From Thermoplasmata archaeon (GTDB lineage: Archaea; Thermoplasmatota; Thermoplasmata; Lutacidiplasmatales; UBA184): DNA of 64,000 nt. The notes beneath the pieces were generated by a model. That model was not told the origin of the DNA and ran no database searches. It worked only from the letters and a program-made list of their open reading frames with translations. The translations under genes were made by a program, and so were the position numbers. The stretch lies in the NCBI GenBank assembly GCA_027314165.1, contig DAHVCH010000002.1, positions 103,716-167,715 of the forward strand. Reading direction: 5' to 3'. This document shows, in pieces, positions 5,482 to 59,887 of this stretch (position 1 is the first letter of the stretch; every line of letters begins with the position of its first letter).

Positions 5482-6396
5482 TCAGGGGGGGACCTGGAGC
5501 GCCTTCACGATCCCCGGAAGGCCGTCGCGGAAACTCGGGAACCGTGGACGCCATCCGAGGCCGCGGAGCGCGGCATTTGACGCGCGGCGGTTCGCGGCGT
5601 TCAGCTCGGCAAGCTCGGCTCCCCACTCCTGACGGGCCTTGGCCATGGGAATGCCCTGTGGGGGCGGCGCATGCAAGAGCTCCGAGAGAACGGTCGCGAA
5701 CTCCTTGACGGTCACGGGCTCATCGTCCACGACGAGGTACGTCGAAGCGGGAGGTGCGTCCTTCGCCAGGCGGAGCAAGGCGGTGCCGGCGTCCTCCCAA
5801 TGGATGGGGGACATGAAGTTCGAACCGTCGTCCAGGAATCGGAAGGTCCCTTCCCGGAGCTCCTGGGCCCATCCTGCGAGCCAAGAGCCCGGGCCGTAGA
5901 CCATCCCGGGTCGAGCAACGACCAGCTCCCGGATCTGCCCCTCGAGGACGGCCCGCCGCCCCAGTTCCTCCGTTGCGTAGTTCACCGCAGAGAGGTGAAC
6001 CGGTCGGGGCTCGCTTTCCTCGGTGATGGACCCGGGGGTCGACCCGTGGACCCAGTACCCCGACCCGATGAGAAGCCTCGGAACTCCGGCCCGCTCCGAC
6101 GCCTCGACCAGACGAAGGCCACCTTCGACCCTGACCCGTCGCATCTCCTCGATCGGACCGGAGCCGTTCTGGGCCAGGTGCACGACCGTCTCGCATCCGC
6201 GGAGCCCCTCGAGGTAGGTCTCCGGACGTAGGATGTCGCCCACCAACGCCTCGGCCCCCGCCGCCTCGACCTCGTGAGCCTTCGAGGAACTCCGAACGAG
6301 CGCGAGGACCGGCGTGCCATCTTTCTTGGCGGCGTTGAGCAGGCTCATCCCGAGGAAGCCGGACGCGCCCGCCACGAAAAGTCGAGGATGACCCAT
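5482..6396 (-). CDS. NAD(P)-dependent epimerase/dehydratase family oxidoreductase (extended SDR)
   Basis: N-terminal Rossmann motif FVAGASGFLG and SDR-like body. ATG at 6396 (cat at 6394-6396). The upstream 131 aa of ORF 5482..6792 were rejected as junk. Confidence 0.85.
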   Translation of the reverse strand: MGHPRLFVAGASGFLGMSLLNAAKKDGTPVLALVRSSSKAHEVEAAGAEALVGDILRPETYLEGLRGCETVVHLAQNGSGPIEEMRRVRVEGGLRLVEASERAGVPRLLIGSGYWVHGSTPGSITEESEPRPVHLSAVNYATEELGRRAVLEGQIRELVVARPGMVYGPGSWLAGWAQELREGTFRFLDDGSNFMSPIHWEDAGTALLRLAKDAPPASTYLVVDDEPVTVKEFATVLSELLHAPPPQGIPMAKARQEWGAELAELNAANRRASNAALRGLGWRPRFPSFRDGLPGIVKALQVPP

Positions 6397-9028: not shown

Positions 9029-9101
9029 TAGCCCCGACCGGATTCGAACCGGTGTCACAGGCTCCAAAGGCCCGTATGCTTGGCCACTACACCACGGGGC
9101 T
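9029..9101 (-). tRNA. tRNA-Gln (anticodon UUG)
   Basis: Cloverleaf folded by hand on the minus strand. Acceptor AGCCCCG/CGGGGCT, D stem GTGT/GCAT, anticodon stem CGGGC/GCCTG with loop CTTTGGA, T arm ACCGG-TTCGAAT-CCGGT, discriminator A. 73 nt, no CCA encoded. Confidence 0.9.
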
Positions 9102-16596: not shown

Positions 16597-16679
16597 GCTG
16601 AGGTAGCCTAGCCCGGCAAGGCGCCGGTCTCGAAAACCGGTGGGTCTCACCCTCGGGAGTTCAAATCTCCCCCTCAGCG
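16597..16679 (+). tRNA. tRNA-Ser (anticodon CGA)
   Basis: Acceptor GCTGAGG/CCTCAGC, 3-bp D stem GCC/GGC, anticodon stem CCGGT/ACCGG with loop CTCGAAA. Long variable arm GGGT-CTC-ACCC, T arm GGGAG-TTCAAAT-CTCCC, discriminator G. 83 nt. Confidence 0.9.
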
Positions 16680-16693
16680 CTCGGCAACCGCCG

Positions 16694-46958: not shown

Positions 46959-49900
46959 TCACTCGGAGTACCGGATCGCTTCCGCCGGAGGGATCCGCGA
47001 CGCGCGGAAGGAGGGCATCCCGGTCGCGACCAGCGTCAGCGCGTAGCTCGTCCCAAGGACGAAGGCGAGGTTCGCCCAAGGGATCGAGAACGCGAAGAAC
47101 CCTCCCACCGCCTCGTTCAGGTTGTAGGCCAGGACGAGCCCCATCACCGCTCCGATCCCGATGCCCATGAGGGCCAGGAAGGAGTACTCCGTGAGGAACA
47201 CGGCCAGCACCTGCGAGCGCCGGAACCCCACCGCCCGGATGACCCCGATCTGCGTCCTCCGCTCCACCACCGCACGAAGGGCCAGGATCCCCAGCGACGT
47301 GATCCCGACGATGAGCCCCAGGGCCACGAAGACCTCGAGGAGGTCGATGAACGCGTTGGTGAACTGCAGCGTGGTCGACAGGATCTGCGCGAAATCGAAG
47401 ACCTCAAGGTTGTCGGCGAAGAAGTGGGTCTGGAAGGTCTGGATCACCGTCCGCGAGTCGACCCCCGGAGCTCCCGTCAGAAGGAAAAGCTGCTGGGTGG
47501 AGAAATGGAAGGTGCCGGTCAGCAGCGCAGGGCTCACCAGCACGGCCTGGAGGACCTGCTCGGAGAGGACCCCGATGACCTCCACGGTGGACGTTCCTCC
47601 GAAGAGCCCCTCGATCGTGACCCGGTCACCGGGCCGGACCCCCGCGTGACCGGAGCCTCCTTGGATGGCCGCGGCGAGCGCGTTCGTCTGGAAGCTCCCG
47701 TCCACGACGGCGACGCTGGTGTTGGTCTCGAGCGCCTGCCAGATCTGCGAGGGCGACCAACCGGGCAGGGTGGCGGAGAAACTGAACTGGTTCGTCGAGT
47801 AGAAGTCCTGCCAGGCCGGGGTCCCGTCCTGCGGGGTGGGGGCGGCGGCGAGCCCGTAGCCGAAGCAGGCCCGGGAGGAGGAGCACGATTGGGACGGGAG
47901 CGGATTGACCATGCCCATCCCCGAGTAGAACGAGACAAGCGTCGAGACCTCCCCTCGCAGTGTCGAGTTGTTCTGGACCTGGGAGGCGAGGTCGGTGATC
48001 GGCGTGGGGGAGACGCCGTAGAACTGGTACCCCCCCGACTCGGTATGGATGGAGTTCGACACCCCGGAGGAGATCCCGTTCCCTATGGCGGCAATGGCCG
48101 TGATCGTGAAGAGGACCATGGCGAAGATGCTGATGGTCATGGCCGAACGGAACCGTCGTTGGGACGGGTAGGAGAACGCGAGACGGACGACCGGGAGGTT
48201 CCTCGAACCGCTCCGGGAGAGCCTCGTGAGCGCCTGGACGATGAGGTCGGAGTTGAACACGTAGAGGATGACCGCGGCGAGGATCAGGAAGACCCCCATC
48301 TGGAAGAACACGAAGATCGTCCCCGAGTGCGTGCCCGGGAACAGTTCGTTCCGAAGCTGGAGGTCGCCCCAGAACACCAGGAGGCCGAGCGCGGAGGCGG
48401 AGAACGTCCAGCGCAGCGGCACCCGGTAGGCGGCGATGAGCCCGACCGCGAGGATGAGGAGGCTCGCTCCCAGGAATCCCACGTCGATGTCCGTCCCCGA
48501 CTTGTGTCCCACCTCGTACAGGGCCGCGCCCAGGAGGAGCAGCAGGACCCCGGAGCCGAGCAGGGCACGGCGGGAGCGCTCCTTGTGGATCAACTCCGGC
48601 TGGCTGCGGATCGCGCGGACGATGTTCATCCGGCTGACGTAGGCCGAGGTCACGCTCACGGTGACGAGCGTGAGCAGGAAACCGGCGGAGTAGGCGAGGG
48701 CGAGGCTCCTGGGGGTGAAGGTGAAGGAGTCGACGATGGCGGAGGCGGCGACCCCGCCGCCGCTCCCGAACAGGCTCGCGAAGAGCTGGATGATGCCCCA
48801 TCCGACCAGGACCCCTAGGAACGTCCCGAGGAGGGCGGAACCCGCGGAGTAGGCGAGTCCCTCGAAGTAGTAGGCCCGGATGAGCTGGCCTCGACGCATC
48901 CCGACGGCCCGCGCCACCCCCATCTCGCCGCGCCGCTCCTCCGCGAGCATCGCGAAGATGCCCACGATCAGGACGCAGCCCGCCCCGATCGAGAAGAGCC
49001 CCAGGACGAGGAAGAGCTGGGTCAAGGACTGGGCGTTGGCCTCTGCCGTAAGGAGGTCGGAGAGGAGAACGGAATGGACCTCGAGGCCTCTCGGCGGAGT
49101 TCCCCCGGCCCTCTGGTCCGCGAGGACGGAGGCGCTCTTCGAGCTGTTGAGCGGCCCCCAGACCTGGTTCGTATGGGCGGTCCCTCCCACGAGCCCTCCC
49201 GTGTTCGTCACGGCGATGTAGTTGATCGGCTGGGTGGCGTAGGCGGAGCAAATCCCTCCGCACAGCGCCTGAGCGTCCGAGAGCGAGAGGAAGACGTCGC
49301 CCATGCCGGAGTCCTGGAACCCGCCGCGCGTGTCGGACTTGACCAGGGAGAGCACCGAGAAGTTGACCGGGACCTGCGCCGCTCCGCTCAGGGAGACCTT
49401 GTCGCCCACCTGCGCGGAGAGCTCGGTCGCCGCCGCCGCGTTGAGCAGGATCTTCCCTGGAGAGGGACCGCTCACGGGGGCGCCGGTCGTGGAGGTGAAG
49501 CTCCCGAGGTTCGAGCTCGCCCAGGCGTCGACCCCGATGAGCGTGAGGCCAGGCTGCGCGACGTTCTGGGTCCGGTCGTAGGCCGACCCCGTCGTGATGA
49601 GCATCGGGGTGAGCCCCTGGACGTTAGGGACGCGCGCGGCCGTCGTGTTCATGGACGAGAAGATGGCCATGTCGAACGTGCTGTAGCTGACCGAGGTCCC
49701 CCCGACCCCTCCCTGCGGGGCGGGGGCGTAGACCGCCTCGTCCACGGCCCCGTCCGCGATGTAGGTGAAGTGGACCGAGAGGTTGTCCACCGTGTCGCCG
49801 ATCACCAGGCTCGAGGAGATGATCGCGCTGCCGATCAGCAGCCCGAAGAGGAGCACCAGCGTCCGGGTCCTCGCGCGGGTGACGTTCCGAAGGCCGATCT

Positions 49901-50219
49901 TCGCGATGACCCGGTCCTTGAGCCCCAGGGCGAGGGAGAAGAGCGCGACGGCGATGACCATCAGGACGAGGAGCCCCACCAGGGGGTCGCCCACCCCGAG
50001 CGCGGTGAGCCCCGCGCTCGCCTGGGAAAGGCCCTGGGGCGTCCCCAGCCACAAGGAGGTCCCGATGAGAAGGAGGCCGAGCGTGACGCCGGTCAACAGG
50101 ACCTGGTTCGACAGGCGCTGTCGCCGGAGCTTCTCCGAGGCGGAGGAGCCCGGCAGGTCGGTCAGAGGAGCCGGTCGAGAGGCCGGCCCCTTCGATCTAC
50201 TCCCCGATGATCCGGCCAT
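46959..50219 (-). CDS. ABC transporter permease, duplicated FtsX/MacB-type (about 10 TM with large extracytoplasmic domains)
   Basis: Two FtsX-domain signatures ([22 protein letters not shown]; [21 protein letters not shown]), each after a large Ser/Thr/Gly-rich loop. ATG at 50219. Confidence 0.9.
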
Positions 50220-50880
50220 CCCGCATCCTCATCGTCCGGTCGCAGCCCGCGGCGACGGCCGGGTCGTGCGTGACCACGACGAAGGTCTGATGGTGCTCCC
50301 GGTTCAGGTCCCGCAAGAGCTCCATCACGGCGTGACTGTTCTCCTCGTCGAGGTTGCCGGTGGGCTCGTCGGCCCACACGATCGCCGGACGGTTCGCGAG
50401 CGCGCGCGCGAGCGTGACCCGCTGCTGCTCCCCACCGGAGAGCGCGCTGGGCCGATGGAGCTCCCGGCCTTTGAGCCCGAGCTCTTTCAGCCAGAGCACC
50501 GCCCGTTGCCGCGCCTCCTTGGGCGGGACGCCGGCCACGAGCAGGGGGAGCTCGACGTTCTCCTGCGCGGTCAGGACCGGCAGCAGGTTGTAGGCCTGGA
50601 AGACGAACCCCATCCGGAGCGCCCGGTACTCGCTGCGGGCGTTGTCGGAGAGGTTCTTGAGGTCCCGACCTTCGATCCGGATGGTCCCCCGGCTGATGTC
50701 GTCCAGGCCGGAGAAGCAGTTGAGGAACGTGGTCTTCCCGCAGCCGGACGGGCCCATGACCGCGACCATCTCGCCCTTCCGGATGTTGACATCGATCCCC
50801 TTGAGCGCGGGGACCTCGCCGGCCTCGGAGGCGTAGATCTTCCAGACCTTCTGGCCCTCGACAACGACGGGAGCGGGCAT
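50197..50880 (-). CDS. ABC transporter ATP-binding protein (MacB/LolD-like)
   Basis: Walker [11 protein letters not shown]-loop, signature LSGGEQQRV, Walker [14 protein letters not shown]-loop VTHD. ATG at 50880. It overlaps the permease start by 23 nt. Confidence 0.95.
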
Positions 50881-50966
50881 TCGAGCGAGCGAGCAGGGTG
50901 GGTGGGGCGGATAAGCTTGGCCGGCGCGCGTCGTGGGCCGGCCCCCGACCGCTCGGGGAGCGACGC

Positions 50967-52082
50967 TCACCTCCCCGGGAGCTCTCGCTTGCGAGGCGGG
51001 CGTCGACCGTCCCTTCCGTGCTCGAGGCCCAGGCTGATGACCGTCAGCCCGTCGACCGTGGGGGCGCTCACCGACCGGCCGCGGTCGCGGACCCGGGGGT
51101 CGGCTCGAGCCCGCGGACCGAACCGGCCGAGGTCGGTGACCGGGAGCCGATGCCTCTCGAGAGCATGCACGACGGCGGCGACCTGTTTGGAGTGGACGGC
51201 GAGCAGGAGGGAGCCTTGGCCCATGGAGGTCAGGGGGTCCGCGCCGAACCGGGTACAGAGCTCCCCCACCTCGGGCTCCACCGGCACCTGAGAGAGATCG
51301 ACCTCGAGGTCCAGACGGGAGGCGCTGGACATCTCGACCAGCGCCCCGACGATGCCTCCCTCGGCCACGTCGTGCATCGCCGAGACCCCGCGGGGGCCCA
51401 GGCCGGCCACGCGGGCCGCGGTGAGCGCCTCCGGGGAGCTCGAGAGCTCCTCGAGCCGGCGGCGCAGGCTTCGGGTCGTGTAGATCCCGAGCAGCTCCTC
51501 GGTCTCGTGAGGGTGGAGGTGGGCCACGGTGACCGCCGTCTCGAGAGCGGCGGTACGGGTGAGGAGCACCCTGGACCCCGGGCAGGCGTCGGCGCTCGTG
51601 ACGAACGCTCCCGGCTTCGCCACCGCGAAGAGCGTCGCGCCCCCGACCATGGGGAAGCTCACGCCGGGGTAACGCCCGGTGTGCCCCGCGACCACCGCGG
51701 TCCCGAACTTGCGGCACTCGTCATGGAGCGCCCGCAGGACGGTCTCCATGTCGCGTTCGGACATCTCCACCGGGAGGTTCCAATCGACACTGAGGTACTG
51801 GGGCGCGACCCCGGTCGTGGTCAGGTCGTTCGAGAGCACGTGGAAGGCGTACCGGGCCGCCCCCTCCCACCCGAAGGAGGGGATGAGACAGAGGGGGTCG
51901 GTCGTCAGGAGCAACGAGCGCTGCCGAGATAGCCGGATCACCCCGACGTCGACCCCGTGCCGGGGGCCCACCTTCACTTCCCGTCGCGGGGCCCCGAGCG
52001 AACGGGCGATGCTCTGGAGGAAGAACCGGTGGGACACCTTTCCGGAGGCCCTTGCGGAGGCCTTCGGGCTCGTGGAGGACAA
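50967..52082 (-). CDS. AIR synthase-related protein (PurM/HypE/ThiL superfamily)
   Basis: GVDVGVI...[27 protein letters not shown], and [13 protein letters not shown] follow the N- and C-domain patterns of the PurM-like fold. Start is TTG 52082 or GTG 52037. Confidence 0.75.
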
Positions 52083-52491: not shown

Positions 52492-53606
52492 GGTCCTCCA
52501 GACTCCCCCGACGCGAACCCCCTCTTGAAGCCATTGGGAGGGAGGTCCTGAGGGAGTTCGACGGTCCGCTCGAAGCGGAGGTGGACCTTCGTTCCGACCG
52601 CAGGGGTCCCTGCCCCGGCGCCTCCGCGCGGAAGCAGGAGCTCGAGCAACGGCGACTCCTCTCTTCCCGCACCCAGGGGTCCGGCGGGTGTCGAGAGTCG
52701 GACGAACATCCGGATCTGAGAGCCGGTCTCGCCCCGGGACTCCACGACCCCCTCCAGGGCGCCCGAGGCACCGGGGTCGCACAGCCGCACCTCCTCCGGG
52801 AGGACCGCGACGGTGCCGTGGTGTGAGGCGGGTTTCGGAAGGACGTTGTAGCCGAGGAACCACGCAACGAACGGGTCGCTCGGTCGGTCGAAGACCTCCT
52901 CCGCGGGTCCCTCCTGGACCCAACGGCCCTCTCGAAGAAGGGCCATCCGCTGCGCGAGGAAGAACCCCTCGTCGAAGTCGTGGGTGACGTAGATCGCCGG
53001 GGTCCCGGCGGCCCGGAGGTAACCCTTGATCTCGCCGCGCAGCTCGCGAGCGTGCCGCGGGTCGGCCGAGGAGAGCGGTTCGTCAAGGAGCAGCAGGGAA
53101 GGCCGAGGCGCGAGAGCACGGGCGAGCGCGACGCGCTGCCGTTCCCCGCCCGAGATCTCCGAAGGGAGCCGTTCGGCGAGGAAGGAGAGGTGGAAGTCGC
53201 GCAGGAGCTCCTCTCCCCGCTTCTCGGCCTCCTGTCGCGACCACCGCTGGACGACGAGCCCGTAGGTGAGGTTGTCCCAGACCGTCTTCCCGGGGAAGAG
53301 CGCCAGGTCCTGGAAGACCATCCCCACGCTCCGACGGTGGGGCGGAAGGTCGGTGATGTCCCTCCCCGCGAGCCGGATGCGGCCGCGCTCGACGGGCTCC
53401 AATCCCGCGAGCAGTCGCAGGAGGGTGGACTTTCCCGAGCCGTTCGGGCCCAGCACGACGAGCGTCTCCCCCTTCCCCACGCTGAGGTCGATCGGTCCCA
53501 GACGGAACTCGGGGTAGCGGGCGACCAGTCCCCGAACCTCGAGATACCCGGGGGCGTCTCGCTCCCGCTCCCCGTCCCCCTCCCTCTCACCCTCGCCCAT
53601 GTCCAC
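52488..53606 (-). CDS. ABC transporter ATP-binding protein (PotA/FbpC/ThiQ-type importer ATPase with C-terminal regulatory domain)
   Basis: Walker A GPNGSGKST, signature ISGGERQRVALARAL, Walker B LLLDEPLSSAD, H-loop YVTHD. The start is GTG 53606 or ATG 53600. Confidence 0.92.
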   Translation of the reverse strand: MDMGEGEREGDGERERDAPGYLEVRGLVARYPEFRLGPIDLSVGKGETLVVLGPNGSGKSTLLRLLAGLEPVERGRIRLAGRDITDLPPHRRSVGMVFQDLALFPGKTVWDNLTYGLVVQRWSRQEAEKRGEELLRDFHLSFLAERLPSEISGGERQRVALARALAPRPSLLLLDEPLSSADPRHARELRGEIKGYLRAAGTPAIYVTHDFDEGFFLAQRMALLREGRWVQEGPAEEVFDRPSDPFVAWFLGYNVLPKPASHHGTVAVLPEEVRLCDPGASGALEGVVESRGETGSQIRMFVRLSTPAGPLGAGREESPLLELLLPRGGAGAGTPAVGTKVHLRFERTVELPQDLPPNGFKRGFASGESGGP

Positions 53607-55409: not shown

Positions 55410-56651
55410 TCAGAACACGATCGCCTCGAGCTGGAGGACCCAGGAGGTCATCTCCGAGGAGCTCTGCGAGGGGGTCGTGAACTGGTTCACCGCCGAGATC
55501 GAGGAGAGCGGTAGGGTCCAGTTGTACACGCCCGGCATCGTGACGGTGTTGTTCGCCGGTTCCATCCACTCGTTCGTCGGGACCTCCCGCTGGACCGTGC
55601 CCCCCAAGGTCCAGTCGATGAAGTCCTGGGCGAGGGTCAGGTTGTGGACCCCGCCCTTGACGATGCCCGTCCCGTAGACGGTCATCCAGCTCCAGTTCTT
55701 CCCCCCGTGCTGCGCGACGCTGGTGTTCATCCATCCGCCGGCCCCGAAGTAGGCCTCCGCCGCGGGATCGCTGATGTAGCTCAGGCACGTCGGGGCCACC
55801 CCCGAGGTGAACTCGGTCCAGCAGGTGGACCAGTCCGGCAGGGGGTGGATGTCCGGGGCCACCGAGGTCCAGAACGTCGTCCAGTTCTGGTGGAGCACGT
55901 TGGTGTAGTACTCGACCTCCCAGGCCAGGAACTCCTCACCCGTGATGTCCCCCTGGACGGGGTCGGGATAGTAGAGGTCCTTCGCGAGGCTCGGGTTCGC
56001 CTGGAGCGTCTGGAAGAAATCGCCCTGGCTGAACGGGTGCCCCAGGGACGTGTCGGTCGAGATGTTGTAGTCCAGACCCAGGTAGCCGTATTCGTACGGC
56101 GTCACGCTGTGGTCCGGCGCGATGGTGGAGACCACCGCGGGGTCCACGTGGGCGAGCTGCGGCGAAGTGTAGGGGACCAGAAGTCCCGCCTGGTCGGCCT
56201 CCGGGGCCTCGAGCTCGTCCAGCCCCATCACCACGTCCGGGAGCGTCCCCGGTTTCGCGTTGATGAGCGCCTGGGCCAGGTTGCCCGACACGCTCACGAC
56301 GGTGACGGTGCTCCCGGTCAGGTTCCCGAACTGCTGGAAGACCGCTCCTCTGGCCGCCCCGGGAGAAGATCCCCCACCGAAGATCCCGTCGTAGGCCCAG
56401 ACCACGAGCGAATGGCACTGCGACGTGCAACCGTTCCCCGACGAGGAGCCCTTCGACGCGGCAAGGATGTGGTAGGCGGCAAAGCCGGCGACCGCAGCTA
56501 GAAGCACCACGGCCACGACCACCCACACCGAGACCGACCGACGGACCCGGTGGACCCGCTCCGGCGAGGGCGATAGCCCCCCGGGGGTCGAGGACGGAAC
56601 GTTCGTCGCTTCGGTCTCGCTCTCGATCGTATTCCCGGGCCGCGTGGTCAT
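55410..56651 (-). CDS. ABC importer substrate-binding protein (thiamine/iron TbpA/AfuA-like), membrane-anchored
   Basis: N-terminal TM anchor (VWVVVAVVLLAAVAGFAAY), a Ser/Gly linker, then a periplasmic-binding-protein-like body rich in Trp/Tyr with several N-x-S/T sequons. It is the first gene after the TPP riboswitch. Confidence 0.8.
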   Translation of the reverse strand: MTTRPGNTIESETEATNVPSSTPGGLSPSPERVHRVRRSVSVWVVVAVVLLAAVAGFAAYHILAASKGSSSGNGCTSQCHSLVVWAYDGIFGGGSSPGAARGAVFQQFGNLTGSTVTVVSVSGNLAQALINAKPGTLPDVVMGLDELEAPEADQAGLLVPYTSPQLAHVDPAVVSTIAPDHSVTPYEYGYLGLDYNISTDTSLGHPFSQGDFFQTLQANPSLAKDLYYPDPVQGDITGEEFLAWEVEYYTNVLHQNWTTFWTSVAPDIHPLPDWSTCWTEFTSGVAPTCLSYISDPAAEAYFGAGGWMNTSVAQHGGKNWSWMTVYGTGIVKGGVHNLTLAQDFIDWTLGGTVQREVPTNEWMEPANNTVTMPGVYNWTLPLSSISAVNQFTTPSQSSSEMTSWVLQLEAIVF

Positions 56652-56684
56652 GTCCCGCCTTCTGCGGGGGAACCCTCTACGCTG

Positions 56685-56790
56685 GCCATCGTCTTCCCTG
56701 CGCCGGCATTACCCGGATCAGGTTCGAGGGGTCGACAGACGAGGTCTGTCCTCTCAGCCGCATGATGGCTCCCCCAGCTGGGGGGCTCGA
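56685..56790 (-). promoter_or_regulatory. TPP (THI-box) riboswitch aptamer
   Basis: The minus-strand RNA reads GGGGGAGCCAUCAUGCGGCUGAGAGGACAGACCUCGUCUGUCGACCCCUCGAACCUGAUCCGGGUAAUGCCGGCGCAGGGAAG. It contains the invariant CUGAGA (plus 56752-56757) and ACCUGAUC.GG.UAAUGCC.GCG.AGGGA (plus 56695-56723) blocks in the canonical order and spacing, 35-125 nt upstream of AUG 56651. Confidence 0.9.
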
Positions 56791-56996
56791 ACGGCGGGGG
56801 ACTAATAGGGTTGCCCGAGGGCCCCCCCCGGCGGGGCTCCCTCGGTCCGGCCTCCGTCCTCGGGGGGAGGCGTTCCGTCCCTGACCCTCAGAACGGAAAC
56901 GGGCCCTGCCGGGCGGCGGTCCCTCCCTCGGATCCGGCCACCGGCGTCCTCGACGCGCGGCGGACCGATCTCGGTCCTCCCGAGGGGCCCCGCGCT

Positions 56997-58982
56997 TCAG
57001 TGAGGCTTGAGCCCGGCTTCCTTCTGGAGCGCGCGGATCCGGTCGCGGATCCTGCCCGCCTTCTCGAACTCCAGGCGGTCGGCGGCGAGACGCATCTCCT
57101 CCTCGAGGTTCGCGAGCAGCATCGGGAGCCGCTCCTTCCACTTCTTGCCGAGGCCGCTCGTGGAGAGCTCGCCGCTCTGCGCGCCCTCTTCCTGCTCGAG
57201 GAGGCTGTGGACCTCCTTCACGATGGTCGCGGGGACGATCCCGTGGGCATGGTTGTAGGCCACCTGCTTCTCGCGCCGTCTCGCGGTCTCCTGCATCGCA
57301 CGGGCCATGGACCCCGTGATCCGGTCGGCGTACAGGATGACCTTCCCGTCCAGGTTGCGCGAGGCTCGTCCGGAGGTCTGGATGAGCGAGGTCTCCGAAC
57401 GGAGGTATCCCTCCTTGTCGGCGTCCAGGATGGCGACCAGGCTGACCTCGGGGAGGTCCAAGCCCTCCCGCAGCAGGTTGATCCCCACGAGGATGTCGAA
57501 GCGGCCGAGCCGGAGGTCGCGCAGGATCTCCACCCGCTTGAGCGTCTCCACGTCGCTGTGGAGGTAGCGGACCTTCAGGTGGAGACCGGCGAGGTAGTTC
57601 GCGAGCTCCTCCGCCGTCGACTTGGTGAGGGTCGTGACCAGGCAGCGCTGGCCCTTCTCCACCCGCGCGCGGAGCTCCTGCACGAGGTCCGTCATGTGCC
57701 CCTGGATCGGGCGCACCTCGATCGGGGGGTCGACCAGCCCCGTGGGCCGGATGATCTGCTCGGCCACCTGGTCGCCGGAGAGCTTGAGCTCGAGCGGTCC
57801 CGGCGTCGCCGAGACGAAGATCATCTGGTGCGTGCGCTGGAGGAACTCCGGCCACTTGAGCGGGCGGTTGTCCCGGCAGGAAGGGAGGCGCCAACCGAAC
57901 TCGACCAGGTTGTCCTTGCGGCTCCTGTCGCCCTCGTACATCCCCCGGATCTGCGGGAGCGTCACGTGCGACTCGTCGACGAAGACGAGCGCGTCCTTCG
58001 GGAAGAAGTCGAGGAGCGTGTAGGGCGCCTCTCCCGGCTGCCGCCGCGTCAGGTGGCGGGAGTAGTTCTCGATCCCGTTGCAGTAGCCGACCTCCCGGAT
58101 CATCTCCAGGTCGTACTCGGTCCGGCTCTTCAGCCGCTGGGCCTCCAGGAGCTTCCCCGAAGCGTGGAGCTCACGGTACCGCACGTCCAGCTCCTTCTCC
58201 ACCTCTGCGAGCGCGTCCTGGAGGGATTCCTGGGGCGTGAGGAAGTGCGTTGCCGGGAAGACCTGCAACTGCTCCACAGGGGCCCGGTCCTCCCCCGTCA
58301 CCGGATCGAACCCGAGGATCTCCTCGAGCAGGTCCCCCTCGAACACGAGGCGGTGGCCGGCCTCCGCCGCGCCCATGAGGTCGATGGTCGAGCCGCGCAC
58401 CCGGAAGCGCCCGCGCTTGAGCTCCGTGTCGTTGCGCTGGTAGCGCATGGAGACGAGCTTCTGCAGGAGGTCCCGGCGGGACCAGGATTCGCCCTTGCGA
58501 AGCGTCAGCACCTGGGCGCGGTAGTCTTCCGGAGAGCCGAGGCCGTAGATGCAGCTCACGGAGGCCACGATGATGACGTCCCGGCGGGTGAGCAGCGCCT
58601 GCGTCGCCCGGTGGCGCAGCCGGTCGATCTCCTCGTTGATCGACGCGTCCTTCTCGACGAACAGGTCGATCTGGGGAACGTAGGCCTCCGGCTGGTAGTA
58701 GTCGTAGTAGCTGACGAAGTACTCGACCGCGTTGTGAGGGAACACGTCGCGGAACTCGCTGACCAACTGGGCCGCGAGGGTCTTGTTGGGGGAGATGACC
58801 AGGGTCGGTCGCTGCAGCGCCTCGACCACGTGGGCCATGGTGAAGGTCTTGCCCGAACCCGTGACCCCGAGGAGGGTCTGATAGCGCGTGCCGTCCTTGA
58901 CACCCTTGACCAGCTGCCGGATGGCCTGAGGCTGGTCTCCCCGAGGCTCGAGCGGGGACTCGAGCCGGAACTTCCCCGGCAT
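56997..58982 (-). CDS. uvrB: excinuclease ABC subunit B
   Basis: GDQPQAI, GVTGSGKTFTMA, YVSYYDYYQPEAY, DESH, and the C-terminal UVR motif (LEFEKAGRIRDRI). ATG at 58982, internal to ORF 56997..59624. Confidence 0.95.
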   Translation of the reverse strand: MPGKFRLESPLEPRGDQPQAIRQLVKGVKDGTRYQTLLGVTGSGKTFTMAHVVEALQRPTLVISPNKTLAAQLVSEFRDVFPHNAVEYFVSYYDYYQPEAYVPQIDLFVEKDASINEEIDRLRHRATQALLTRRDVIIVASVSCIYGLGSPEDYRAQVLTLRKGESWSRRDLLQKLVSMRYQRNDTELKRGRFRVRGSTIDLMGAAEAGHRLVFEGDLLEEILGFDPVTGEDRAPVEQLQVFPATHFLTPQESLQDALAEVEKELDVRYRELHASGKLLEAQRLKSRTEYDLEMIREVGYCNGIENYSRHLTRRQPGEAPYTLLDFFPKDALVFVDESHVTLPQIRGMYEGDRSRKDNLVEFGWRLPSCRDNRPLKWPEFLQRTHQMIFVSATPGPLELKLSGDQVAEQIIRPTGLVDPPIEVRPIQGHMTDLVQELRARVEKGQRCLVTTLTKSTAEELANYLAGLHLKVRYLHSDVETLKRVEILRDLRLGRFDILVGINLLREGLDLPEVSLVAILDADKEGYLRSETSLIQTSGRASRNLDGKVILYADRITGSMARAMQETARRREKQVAYNHAHGIVPATIVKEVHSLLEQEEGAQSGELSTSGLGKKWKERLPMLLANLEEEMRLAADRLEFEKAGRIRDRIRALQKEAGLKPH

Positions 58983-59047
58983 GGGCTGGTGGACCAGTTC
59001 CGTGCTGGGCGCCTTCGCTCCGACGGTCGCGGCGGGGGTGGAGGACG

Positions 59048-59887
59048 TCACGTGCCGCCGCTCCCCGCAGGTCCCGGGCCGACCGGCCCGGGGGCCTCGG
59101 GTCCGTCCCACGTCCGCGTTCCCGCGGGGCGGTAGCCCTGCGGGTCGATGGAAACGTTGGAGAACCCCAGGGCGAGGAGTTCCTGGCCGATCTGCACACG
59201 GAGAAAGGGGTCGCCGAACCGGGGGACCTCCTCCGGCCCGACCTCGATGCGCGCCTTTCCCTGCGAGGTGCGGACGCGGACCTGGCGGAACCCGTGGGCG
59301 CGCAGCAGCCCCTCGGCGGCGTCGATGCGCCGCAGGAGCTCCGGGGAGATCGCCTCCCCGTGGGCGATCCGAGAGGCGAGGCAGCTGTTCGAAGGGGCGT
59401 CGTGGTTCGGGAGCCCCCACGCCCGGGCCATCTCCCGGACGTCCGACTTCCCGGCCCCGGCCTCCAGGAGGGGGTGGCGAACTCCGAGCTCGCCCATGGC
59501 CCGCATTCCCGGCCGGTCGTCGCCCAGGTCGTCCGCGTGGATGCCGTCGACGACCGTCGCAAAGCCCTGCCGTTCGGCGATCTCCTTCAGGCGTCCGCCT
59601 TCCTGCGAGCGGCAGAAGTAGCAACGGTCGAGGGGGTTCGCCGTGTACCGGGGGTCCGCCGTCGGATCCAGGGGTTCGAGGAGGTGGCGTATCCCGATCG
59701 CGCGCGCTGCACGCTCGGCCATCTCGACCTCCTCCTTCGGCACGGCCGGCCCGACGAGGGTGACCGCGAGCGACCTCTCCCCCAGCGCGCGATGGGCGGC
59801 GGCGGCCACGACGGCCGAGTCCACCCCCCCAGAGAAGGCGACCAACACGGACCCCATCTCCCGGAGCTTCCGCTCGAGGGTCACCAT
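59048..59887 (-). CDS. PP-loop ATP pyrophosphatase (LarE / TIGR00268-like sulfur transferase family)
   Basis: SGGVDS PP-loop (LVAFSGGVDSAVV), CYFCR, and the C-terminal ..SCLASR.. motif. ATG at 59887. Confidence 0.8.
   Translation of the reverse strand: MVTLERKLREMGSVLVAFSGGVDSAVVAAAAHRALGERSLAVTLVGPAVPKEEVEMAERAARAIGIRHLLEPLDPTADPRYTANPLDRCYFCRSQEGGRLKEIAERQGFATVVDGIHADDLGDDRPGMRAMGELGVRHPLLEAGAGKSDVREMARAWGLPNHDAPSNSCLASRIAHGEAISPELLRRIDAAEGLLRAHGFRQVRVRTSQGKARIEVGPEEVPRFGDPFLRVQIGQELLALGFSNVSIDPQGYRPAGTRTWDGPEAPGPVGPGPAGSGGT

Follow-up and report, generated by a model that had tools for sequence, protein, structure and literature searches.

Two thiamine pyrophosphate (TPP) riboswitches of Escherichia coli are the natural points of comparison for the leader described here: that in the leader of the binding-protein gene of the thiBPQ operon (tbpA-thiP-thiQ), and that of thiM, an OFF switch in which the Shine-Dalgarno sequence is sequestered by alternative pairing. 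We have analyzed a TPP riboswitch in front of an ATP-binding cassette (ABC) importer operon of an archaeon, on the minus strand of a 64 kb stretch of the Thermoplasmata contig DAHVCH010000002.1. We refer to this whole stretch as the window, and all features of the leader and of the operon given below lie on its minus strand. The host is an uncultured, high-GC soil or peat Thermoplasmata archaeon whose DNA is about 70% GC.

Archaeal relatives of the element have been described. TPP riboswitches precede transporter genes in Thermoplasma and Ferroplasma, and are expressed in acid-mine Thermoplasmatales (bioRxiv 10.1101/538918). The present locus shares with these Thermoplasma, Ferroplasma and acid-mine 'plasma' riboswitches the aptamer class, the phylum and the placement before a putative thiamine-related transporter. 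However, the genes that follow those archaeal cases encode multi-transmembrane hypothetical proteins, whereas here a binding-protein-dependent ABC importer follows, in a high-GC soil or peat lineage and behind an aptamer whose P1 has 2-3 bp and stands at the predicted 5' end. As of 2021, the fluoride riboswitch was stated to be the sole natural archaeal riboswitch that had been experimentally determined (PMC8241225). The fluoride riboswitch of Thermococcus kodakarensis and the one studied here are both archaeal and presumed to be translational, but differ in ligand and aptamer. We know of no upstream open reading frame (ORF) described for the T. kodakarensis switch.

Such a frame is what brings in the third comparison. 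In Mycobacterium tuberculosis the B12 riboswitch of ppe2 is followed by the upstream ORF (uORF) uPPE2, which overlaps the main gene as AUGA; PPE2 requires translation of the uORF and is made by termination-reinitiation (Kipkorir et al., 2024, PMC11260477). The metE switch of the same species has a translated, repressive uORF inside its aptamer (PMC11260477), and strict coupling at overlapping gene pairs by termination-reinitiation has been demonstrated in the archaeon Haloferax volcanii (PMC6728339). Like ppe2, the leader in the window has a short ORF after the riboswitch, with a stop that overlaps the main start as AUGA. It differs from ppe2 in ligand class and domain of life, in being known from sequence alone, and in its layout, since here the uORF start adjoins the aptamer (5 nt past AGGGA) and the main start lies behind a hairpin. 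On balance, we favor a reading in which the leader is a TPP-sensing OFF riboswitch: TPP would block the uORF, and the importer would be translated by termination-reinitiation.

Aptamer identity and conservation

The whole window was scanned with all Rfam families, and a single riboswitch match was obtained, to the TPP family RF00059 at 56785-56678. It covers the full model (positions 1-105) and scores 69.4 bits against a gathering threshold of 54.3, with E = 1.4e-11. The original prediction had called a TPP riboswitch at this place and had proposed this score as a check; the call stands, the motifs that it listed are all present at the minus-strand positions that it gave, and the element is confirmed, as far as sequence can do so, as a genuine TPP riboswitch. 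The aptamer core, defined by the RF00059 match and by the conservation described below, spans 56691-56778 and contains GCUGAGA (56758-56752), ACCCC (56732-56728) and GAACCUGAUCCGGGUAAUGCCGGCGCAGGGAAG (56725-56693). The Rfam alignment of the window has P2 (56775-56772 with 56731-56728), P3 (56769-56765 with 56761-56757), the optional stem P3a (56750-56744 with 56740-56734), P4 (56722-56719 with 56700-56697) and P5 (56716-56713 with 56706-56703) all formed. The ligand-contact motif CUGAGA of J3/2 is at 56757-56752 and loop L5 at 56712-56707, while P1, of at most 2-3 bp, joins 56778-56776 to 56694-56691.

Orthologous leaders came from two collections. The genome set has one genome per species and comprises 80 loci, 79 with upstream DNA and one without. 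The metagenome set likewise comprises 80 loci, 78 with upstream DNA and two without; 16 of its leaders are identical to leaders of the genome set, and the combined leader count is 158. All 80 loci of the genome set come from Thermoplasmata or Thermoplasmatota metagenome-assembled genomes (MAGs), as expected from the archaeal host that the original prediction had assumed; one of the 80 is from Candidatus Lutacidiplasma silvani, and the closest relative (locus L001) is 96% identical to the window. With a search profile built from 33 leaders, the aptamer was found once, on the strand of the gene and directly upstream of the binding-protein gene, in all 79 testable genome loci, and once and directly upstream of that gene in all 78 testable metagenome loci. 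Among 19 further testable orthologous leaders, 16 pass the RF00059 gathering score (54.6-67.7 bits) and three fall below it.

Conservation was measured in an alignment of 77 leaders from 77 species-level genomes (A2). No variation is seen in the ligand-contact motifs CUGAGA, AACCUG, GCG and AGGGA, nor in P2, in which 100% of the cells are paired. The other stems vary and keep their pairing: P3 is paired in 93.8% of cells with two-sided changes at one pair, P3a in 99.8% with changes on both sides at four of six pairs (in 14, 34, 14 and 5 sequences), and P4/P5 in 89.6%, with one P5 pair fully compensatory, from G-C to C-G in 15 sequences. Judged by pair counts, the whole aptamer structure beats all 500 shuffles and all slid registers, and RNAalifold, applied to the full leader alignment and to an ungapped alignment of the platform, recovered only the aptamer. 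The comparison of orthologous leaders thus yields the covariation that was looked for, in P3a and P5, and on this evidence purifying selection acts strongly on the aptamer and on the nucleotides that contact the ligand. One detail of the original prediction has to be corrected: the hairpin GACAGAC-CUC-GUCUGUC (56750-56734), which had been taken for an unusual extra, is the standard optional P3a, present in the Rfam consensus and compensatory at four of its six pairs.

A few orthologous leaders (L055, L071 and L054, together with the low scorers L063, L066 and L028) have the invariant ligand-contact motifs and an RF00059 score at or below the threshold. The low scores probably arise because P1 is missing or reduced, and aptamers poor in P1, lying near or below the Rfam threshold, are therefore probably under-annotated in archaeal MAGs.

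Promoter, transcript start and the short P1

To place the 5' end of the transcript, 79 orthologous upstream regions were aligned without gaps, anchored on the first G of GGGGG. In otherwise unconserved sequence of 70% GC, an A-rich block at -37 to -35 and a T/A-rich block at -32 to -28 are embedded at a fixed distance from P2, and a Y-G-C-W motif is conserved at -4 to -1, with G at -3 in 74 of 79 regions and a pyrimidine before this G in 62 of 79. The window has AAC, resembling a B recognition element, at 56812-56810 and the TATA-like TATTA at 56807-56803, exactly at the positions of the two family blocks. The TATA centre is 26-27 nt upstream of the conserved G at -3, the distance that archaeal promoters have between the middle of TATA and a purine start. 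Because the conserved G stands at this canonical spacing, the transcript should start at G56778, 3 nt before P2 and at the edge of the aptamer. The TATA-like CTATTAG (56808-56802) singled out in the original prediction is thus part of a promoter conserved at fixed distance in 79 regions, and its suggestion that the transcript starts at the aptamer without a classical P1 is consistent with both the conserved promoter and the weak P1 pairing. A T at -14 is present in 51 of 79 regions, 11 nt before the predicted start, and resembles the archaeal -10/-11 promoter element; in the window a TT (56789-56791) lies one to two positions further upstream. No conservation other than the promoter blocks and the T at -14 was detected upstream of -4 in the 79 regions, and this sequence is probably not transcribed.

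The pairing of P1 was followed in the window and in the family. In the Rfam alignment of the window two of the five P1 pairs are non-canonical, and at most two contiguous pairs are possible. Among the 77 aligned leaders, the G-C pair is kept in 68, the C-G pair in 64 and the next outward pair in 45, the remainder being at chance. An extended P1 was rejected: in one register the outer pairs were tested and form at chance frequency, the alternative register, that of Rfam, fails on inspection of the alignment, and apart from the promoter elements the sequence before -4 is unconserved. The palindrome CCCCCAGCUGGGGG (56784-56771), which had been thought to compete with P2, is indeed present in the window, but positions -12 to -5 carry no conservation signal; as an unconserved C-run upstream of the predicted start it is ruled out as a P2 competitor, and we regard it as incidental.

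So short a P1, together with the several orthologues at or below the Rfam threshold, could also mean that control is exerted on transcription or RNA stability, or that the aptamer is decaying and, its P1 having been lost, has ceased to bind TPP. We consider this highly improbable. Decay is excluded by ligand-contact motifs that are invariant across 77 species-level genomes and by stems that covary. As to transcription, its termination in archaea uses oligo-U tracts, and the leader has no tract of this kind; the features of the platform, moreover, all concern start codons.

Short frames in the leader

What tells most about the expression platform is a conserved uORF, which the original prediction did not contain. 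In the window it occupies 56689-56648 and reads AUG GCC AGC GUA GAG GGU UCC CCC GCA GAA GGC GGG ACA UGA, i.e., 13 codons and a stop. Its start is 5 nt after AGGGA, right after the P1 3' strand, and its UGA overlaps the importer AUG as AUGA at 56651-56648. The placement of the start is strict: in the 158 leaders the start codon is always exactly 5 nt past AGGGA. It is ATG in 70, GTG in 8 and ACG in 2 leaders of the genome set (n = 80), and ATG in 72, GTG in 4, TTG in 1 and ACG in 1 of the metagenome set (n = 78), so that 155 of 158 leaders have ATG, GTG or TTG. The length of the frame in the family is 12-21 codons.

The placement of the stop can be compared with a null expectation. Relative to the importer start, it is found at +1 in 56, at +5 in 9 and at +11 in 8 leaders of the genome set (n = 80), with one each at +7, +8, +14 and +19, two at -5 and a single outlier; in the metagenome set (n = 78) it is at +1 in 68, at +5 in 5, at +11 in 3 and at +7 and +14 in one each, with no outlier. 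Taken together, 157 of 158 leaders have the stop within -5 to +19 nt of the main start, and 124 of 158 have an AUGA or GUGA overlap, where the null for a stop in the matching range of codons is 9% when positions are drawn at random from these loci (median open run 74 codons) and 15% for shuffles of the spacer. In the AUGA class the spacers are 38, 41 or 44 nt long, which means that indels come in multiples of three and the frame is kept. In the class with a 40-nt spacer an out-of-frame stop is retained at +5 or +11, which falls within the opening codons of the gene for the binding protein (AUGGCUGA, AUGACUGA, AUGGGUAA and AUGGAUAG are examples), and the N-terminal amino acids encoded there vary. 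The base after the main AUG (+4) is A in 56 of 60 members of one frame class and G in 18 of 19 of the other. We take the AUGA overlap and the stops retained in the other frame class to be the signature of coupling, not of insulation.

The first codons of the uORF also resemble a part of the aptamer, the P3 3' strand plus J3/2 (columns 111-122 versus 28-42 of A2): most relatives have CGGCACCUGAGG versus CCGGCUGAGAGG, and the window has GCGUAGAGGG at 56686-56671 versus GCUGAGAGG at 56765-56749. An internal mimic or an old duplication is possible. The segment is not significantly complementary to the P3 5' strand.

A second short frame (56709-56677) starts at an AUG in L5 (56709-56707) and ends at a UAG (56679-56677), 10 nt past the uORF start. 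Among 137 distinct leaders the L5 triplet is ATG in 122, ATA in 14 and ATT in one, and in 132 of them the stop of the L5 frame falls +1 to +16 after the uORF start (TAG in 60, TGA in 55, TAA in 17). A reading of GAUG...CUGA as a kink-turn (box C/D-like) was rejected because the second element varies as the set of stop codons does (UAG, UGA or UAA) and not as a G.A requirement would have it; UGG never occurs at this position in the 137 leaders. The L5 frame could insulate against spurious starts, belong to a relay of small frames that overlap, or have some other role.

A hairpin before the importer start

Just before the binding-protein gene, CCCGC-AGAAG-GCGGG forms a hairpin at 56668-56654 that ends 2 nt before the ATG at 56651. 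That a hairpin adjoins this AUG had been read from the window alone; in the family it turns out to be conserved and covarying, with at least 6 bp in 119 of 122 distinct orthologous segments, 73 distinct stems, and an end 0-3 nt before the importer start in 117 of the 122. The register of the hairpin shifts among sequences, and it was therefore analyzed per sequence. The mean minimum free energy (MFE) is -12.5 kcal/mol, where random 30-mers taken from the same loci have -7.6 kcal/mol, and the mean z against dinucleotide shuffles is -1.33; the hairpin of L001, identical in sequence to that of the window, has -9.6 kcal/mol. A covariance model of the 32-nt hairpin was dropped, as it is too short for a reliable search in GC-rich loci. 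In most relatives the G-rich 3' arm is Shine-Dalgarno-like (GCGGAGGG). The mean unpaired probability of positions -8 to -1 of the main start is 0.34 in the free fold and 0.23 with the aptamer enforced. Because enforcement shifts the accessibility by no more than this, the modelled hairpin looks largely constitutive, i.e., mostly closed with or without the aptamer.

The same stops and the same hairpin could be given a different role, with the short frames as insulators or decoys and the importer initiated directly. The stops would then merely limit spurious translation begun in the aptamer, and the hairpin might bring UAGAGGG or UGAGG near the AUG, making a split ribosome-binding site. A purine-rich element does precede the hairpin, with the sequence UAGAGGG in the window and YURRGG in relatives, conserved stops occur in two frames, and the repressive uORF inside the M. 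tuberculosis metE aptamer offers a precedent (PMC11260477). However, if TPP blocked a repressive uORF, it would induce the importer, an odd arrangement physiologically. The exactness of the AUGA overlap and the stops retained after the main start signal coupling, and the start codon of the importer abuts a strong helix. Direct initiation past decoy frames appears improbable to us.

Alternative pairings

A further part of the original prediction concerned alternative pairings flanking the aptamer, among them GCCAUC (56769-56764) with GAUGGC (56690-56685). The GAUG of the latter is conserved because it holds the uORF start codon. In the window, the unconstrained MFE fold pairs the P2/P3 5' strand GGGGGAGCC with the 5' side of the hairpin GGGUUCCCCC, and is 3.5 kcal/mol better than the fold in which the aptamer is enforced. 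Folding with and without the aptamer constraint thus does bring out an alternative pairing in the window, but it leaves the two states indistinguishable at the upstream start.

The GGGGGAGCC:GGGUUCCCCC pairing is the core of another explanation, a translational switch of the thiM kind in which the uORF has no role. With TPP, P2 and P3 would form and a C-rich strand would pair with the G-rich strand near the AUG as a sequestor; without TPP, the GGGGGAGCC:GGGUUCCCCC pairing would free the start. Apart from the unconstrained fold of the window and the drop of the mean -8 to -1 unpaired probability upon aptamer enforcement, this explanation can point to strong and specific complementarity in some clades (L020, z = -3.6 and -3.8; L061, z = -2.2) and to locus L033. 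This leader (5835-5991) is the sole one without the uORF, as ACG replaces AUG and a stop comes early, and it has a perfect 8-bp complement CCAGCUCC of the aptamer P2/P3 5' strand GGAGCUGG just before the hairpin. To judge by its sequence, L033 looks like a swap to a classical anti-sequestor design, and the uORF design and the classical switch design may be interchangeable in the family.

For the family as a whole we compared duplex energies in 76 distinct leaders with 200 dinucleotide shuffles, pairing the 5' part of the aptamer (the 5' end and the P2 and P3 5' strands, including GCCAUC) with the region after P1 and with the 5' side of the hairpin. No excess complementarity was found for either partner across the 76 leaders, with mean z of -0.18 and -0.40 and p ≤ 0.05 in 12-14%. 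The L020 clade and L061 are the exceptions, and the window's own clade is marginal, with z of about -1.2 to -2. Pairing against the aptamer or the sequestor was rejected as a general feature because these duplex energies are those of the shuffles. Of the flanking alternative pairings originally predicted, the complementarity is therefore present and clade-specific but not a property of the family, and a thiM-like anti-sequestor would be a clade-specific addition, not the common family mechanism.

Three further observations count against a switch of the thiM kind. The start region of the window is not clearly freed, with an unpaired probability of 0.41 in the free and 0.33 in the aptamer-enforced fold for -8 to -1, and of 0.62 in the unconstrained and 0.76 in the enforced fold for the main AUG. 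The upstream start codon, the frame-keeping indels and the placement of the stops are left unexplained. Finally, in most relatives 0-2 nt separate the G-run from the AUG, too few for a normal Shine-Dalgarno spacing. We consider it unlikely, if clearly less so than direct initiation, that the leader works in this way. Compared with E. coli thiM itself, the proposed switch would likewise be an OFF switch of translation initiation in which a helix buries a G-rich element near the start, but it has no family-wide anti-sequestor pairing, and its hairpin is largely constitutive in the models.

Proposed mechanism

The reading that we favor, in which TPP turns the importer off by way of the uORF, can be spelled out as follows. 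The ribosome-binding region of the uORF would be the 3' half of the aptamer: the purine-rich P4 3' strand, AAGGGAA, is 6 nt upstream of the AUG, and the P1 3' strand, which abuts the AUG, would be part of the region as well. When TPP is bound, the closed three-way junction would hide this region and the uORF would not be translated, so that the importer start would stay behind a hairpin with a Shine-Dalgarno-like G-run in its 3' arm. When TPP is low, ribosomes would load at the upstream AUG and melt the hairpin in the course of elongation; having terminated at AUGA, they would reinitiate on the gene for the binding protein. In the window, as in some other clades, the GGGGGAGCC:GGGUUCCCCC complementarity may add a classical anti-sequestor contribution. 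Translation of the uORF, its sensitivity to TPP and its coupling to the importer are what we infer here from the observed aptamer, its conservation, the geometry of the frames and the hairpin, and we hold the scheme to be somewhat probable.

A broader statement can be made for the large soil and peat Thermoplasmata clade, with about 140 distinct leaders, and we put it forward more tentatively, as a possibility that falls a little short of even. Throughout this clade a nearly P1-less, 5'-terminal aptamer would itself be the ribosome-binding site of the leader ORF, and the hairpin-masked transporter would be translated only via reinitiation; the L5 frame may feed into this.

Several observations weigh against uORF-mediated control. 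In the secondary-structure model the accessibility of the upstream start is the same with and without the aptamer enforced (0.52 versus 0.51), and because of this the proposed occlusion has to rest on arguments of tertiary compaction and steric hindrance. P4 and P5 may fold without the ligand, and a P1 of 2-3 bp is unusual among TPP aptamers. The Shine-Dalgarno-like AGGG of the uORF is weak and would be conserved anyway as aptamer sequence, and the peptide that the uORF encodes is not conserved. The L5 frame is unaccounted for by coupling through the uORF. Finally, L033 suggests by its sequence that a classical switch is also open to the family.

The importer operon and its neighbors

The gene behind the hairpin (56651-55410) encodes a membrane-anchored substrate-binding protein of 413 aa and probably of TbpA/ThiB type, whose start codon is supported by the alignment of homologues. 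The curated family that it matches best is TIGR01254 (thiamine ABC substrate-binding protein), at 86.3 bits and slightly short of the cutoff of 93.4; against the thiB equivalog it scores 32 (cutoff 317). Its best relative in the PDB is E. coli TbpA (2QRY, E = 5.5e-7, nearly full length), and NCBI and JGI name its Thermoplasmata homologues thiamine ABC transporter substrate-binding protein. The next gene (55386-53587) encodes a fused permease of 599 aa with two BPD_transp_1 domains (PF00528 twice), a ThiP-like architecture; its match to the ThiP models is full length, with scores that fall far short of the equivalog cutoffs. The third gene encodes an ABC ATPase that also has a TOBE_2 domain (53600-52488; Pfam ABC_tran, 3.8e-36). 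Downstream and on the same strand, the permease is found in 70 of 70 and the ATPase in 63 of 63 eligible loci. The ATG of the ATPase gene precedes the last base of the permease stop by 14 nt (53587-53600; ATGGGCGAGGGTGA), so that the genes overlap, and this overlap of start and stop probably reflects translational coupling within the operon.

By its sequence the operon is ThiBPQ-like, with a TbpA-like binding protein, a fused double permease and an ATPase. The original prediction had proposed that a system of binding protein, permease and ATPase imports thiamine or a precursor, and protein families, the 2QRY match and gene order all agree with an importer of TbpA/ThiBPQ type. The likeness to E. 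coli thiBPQ extends from the TbpA-related binding protein, the ThiP-like fused permease and the ATPase to the TPP riboswitch in the leader. The relationship is distant, however, with all equivalog cutoffs missed; the archaeal binding protein is membrane-anchored and has a long N-terminal tail; and its leader has an archaeal promoter and a conserved upstream ORF in the platform.

At 52250-50967 (minus strand), 238 nt past the ATPase gene, lies a gene for an AIR-synthase-related protein (AIRS and AIRS_C). It matches HypE, SelD and ThiL far below all cutoffs, and it is downstream in two of 59 eligible loci, namely the window and L001; in L004 a homologue is found just upstream of the riboswitch. 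With such scores and such an occurrence, its assignment as ThiL or as a member of the operon is unsupported, and the protein may or may not be a thiamine-phosphate kinase. Also downstream, 46959-51717 (minus strand) holds a second, MacB-like ABC system with an ABC_tran ATPase and a long FtsX-type permease. On the other side, uvrB (within 56997-59624, minus strand) is directly upstream of the riboswitch promoter. The sole other Rfam matches in the window are tRNA-Gln(UUG) at 9029-9101 (minus strand) and tRNA-Ser(CGA) at 16597-16680 (plus strand).

Significance

The aptamer adds a member to a class already known, and the transporter gene that it precedes is of another, ThiBPQ-like kind. Its platform, with a 5'-terminal and nearly P1-less aptamer, adjacent start, AUGA-coupled ORF and masking hairpin, looks new for TPP riboswitches and for archaea, if analogous to that of the mycobacterial B12 switch of ppe2. 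Gene control by natural archaeal riboswitches is essentially untested, and archaeal translation initiation differs from the bacterial model by which riboswitch platforms are interpreted. This leader makes one mechanism directly testable: in about 130 nt it has three elements that can be mutated separately, i.e., the AUG adjacent to the aptamer, the AUGA overlap and the masking hairpin, and about 140 natural variants of the leader serve as built-in controls. Should the proposed mechanism prove true, the leader would provide the first expression platform of defined mechanism among the natural riboswitches of archaea, and the first case of a TPP riboswitch shown to work by way of a uORF coupled to its gene. 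For the physiology of these archaea, the riboswitch supports the assignment of thiamine or a thiamine precursor as the substrate of a widespread family of archaeal ABC importers.

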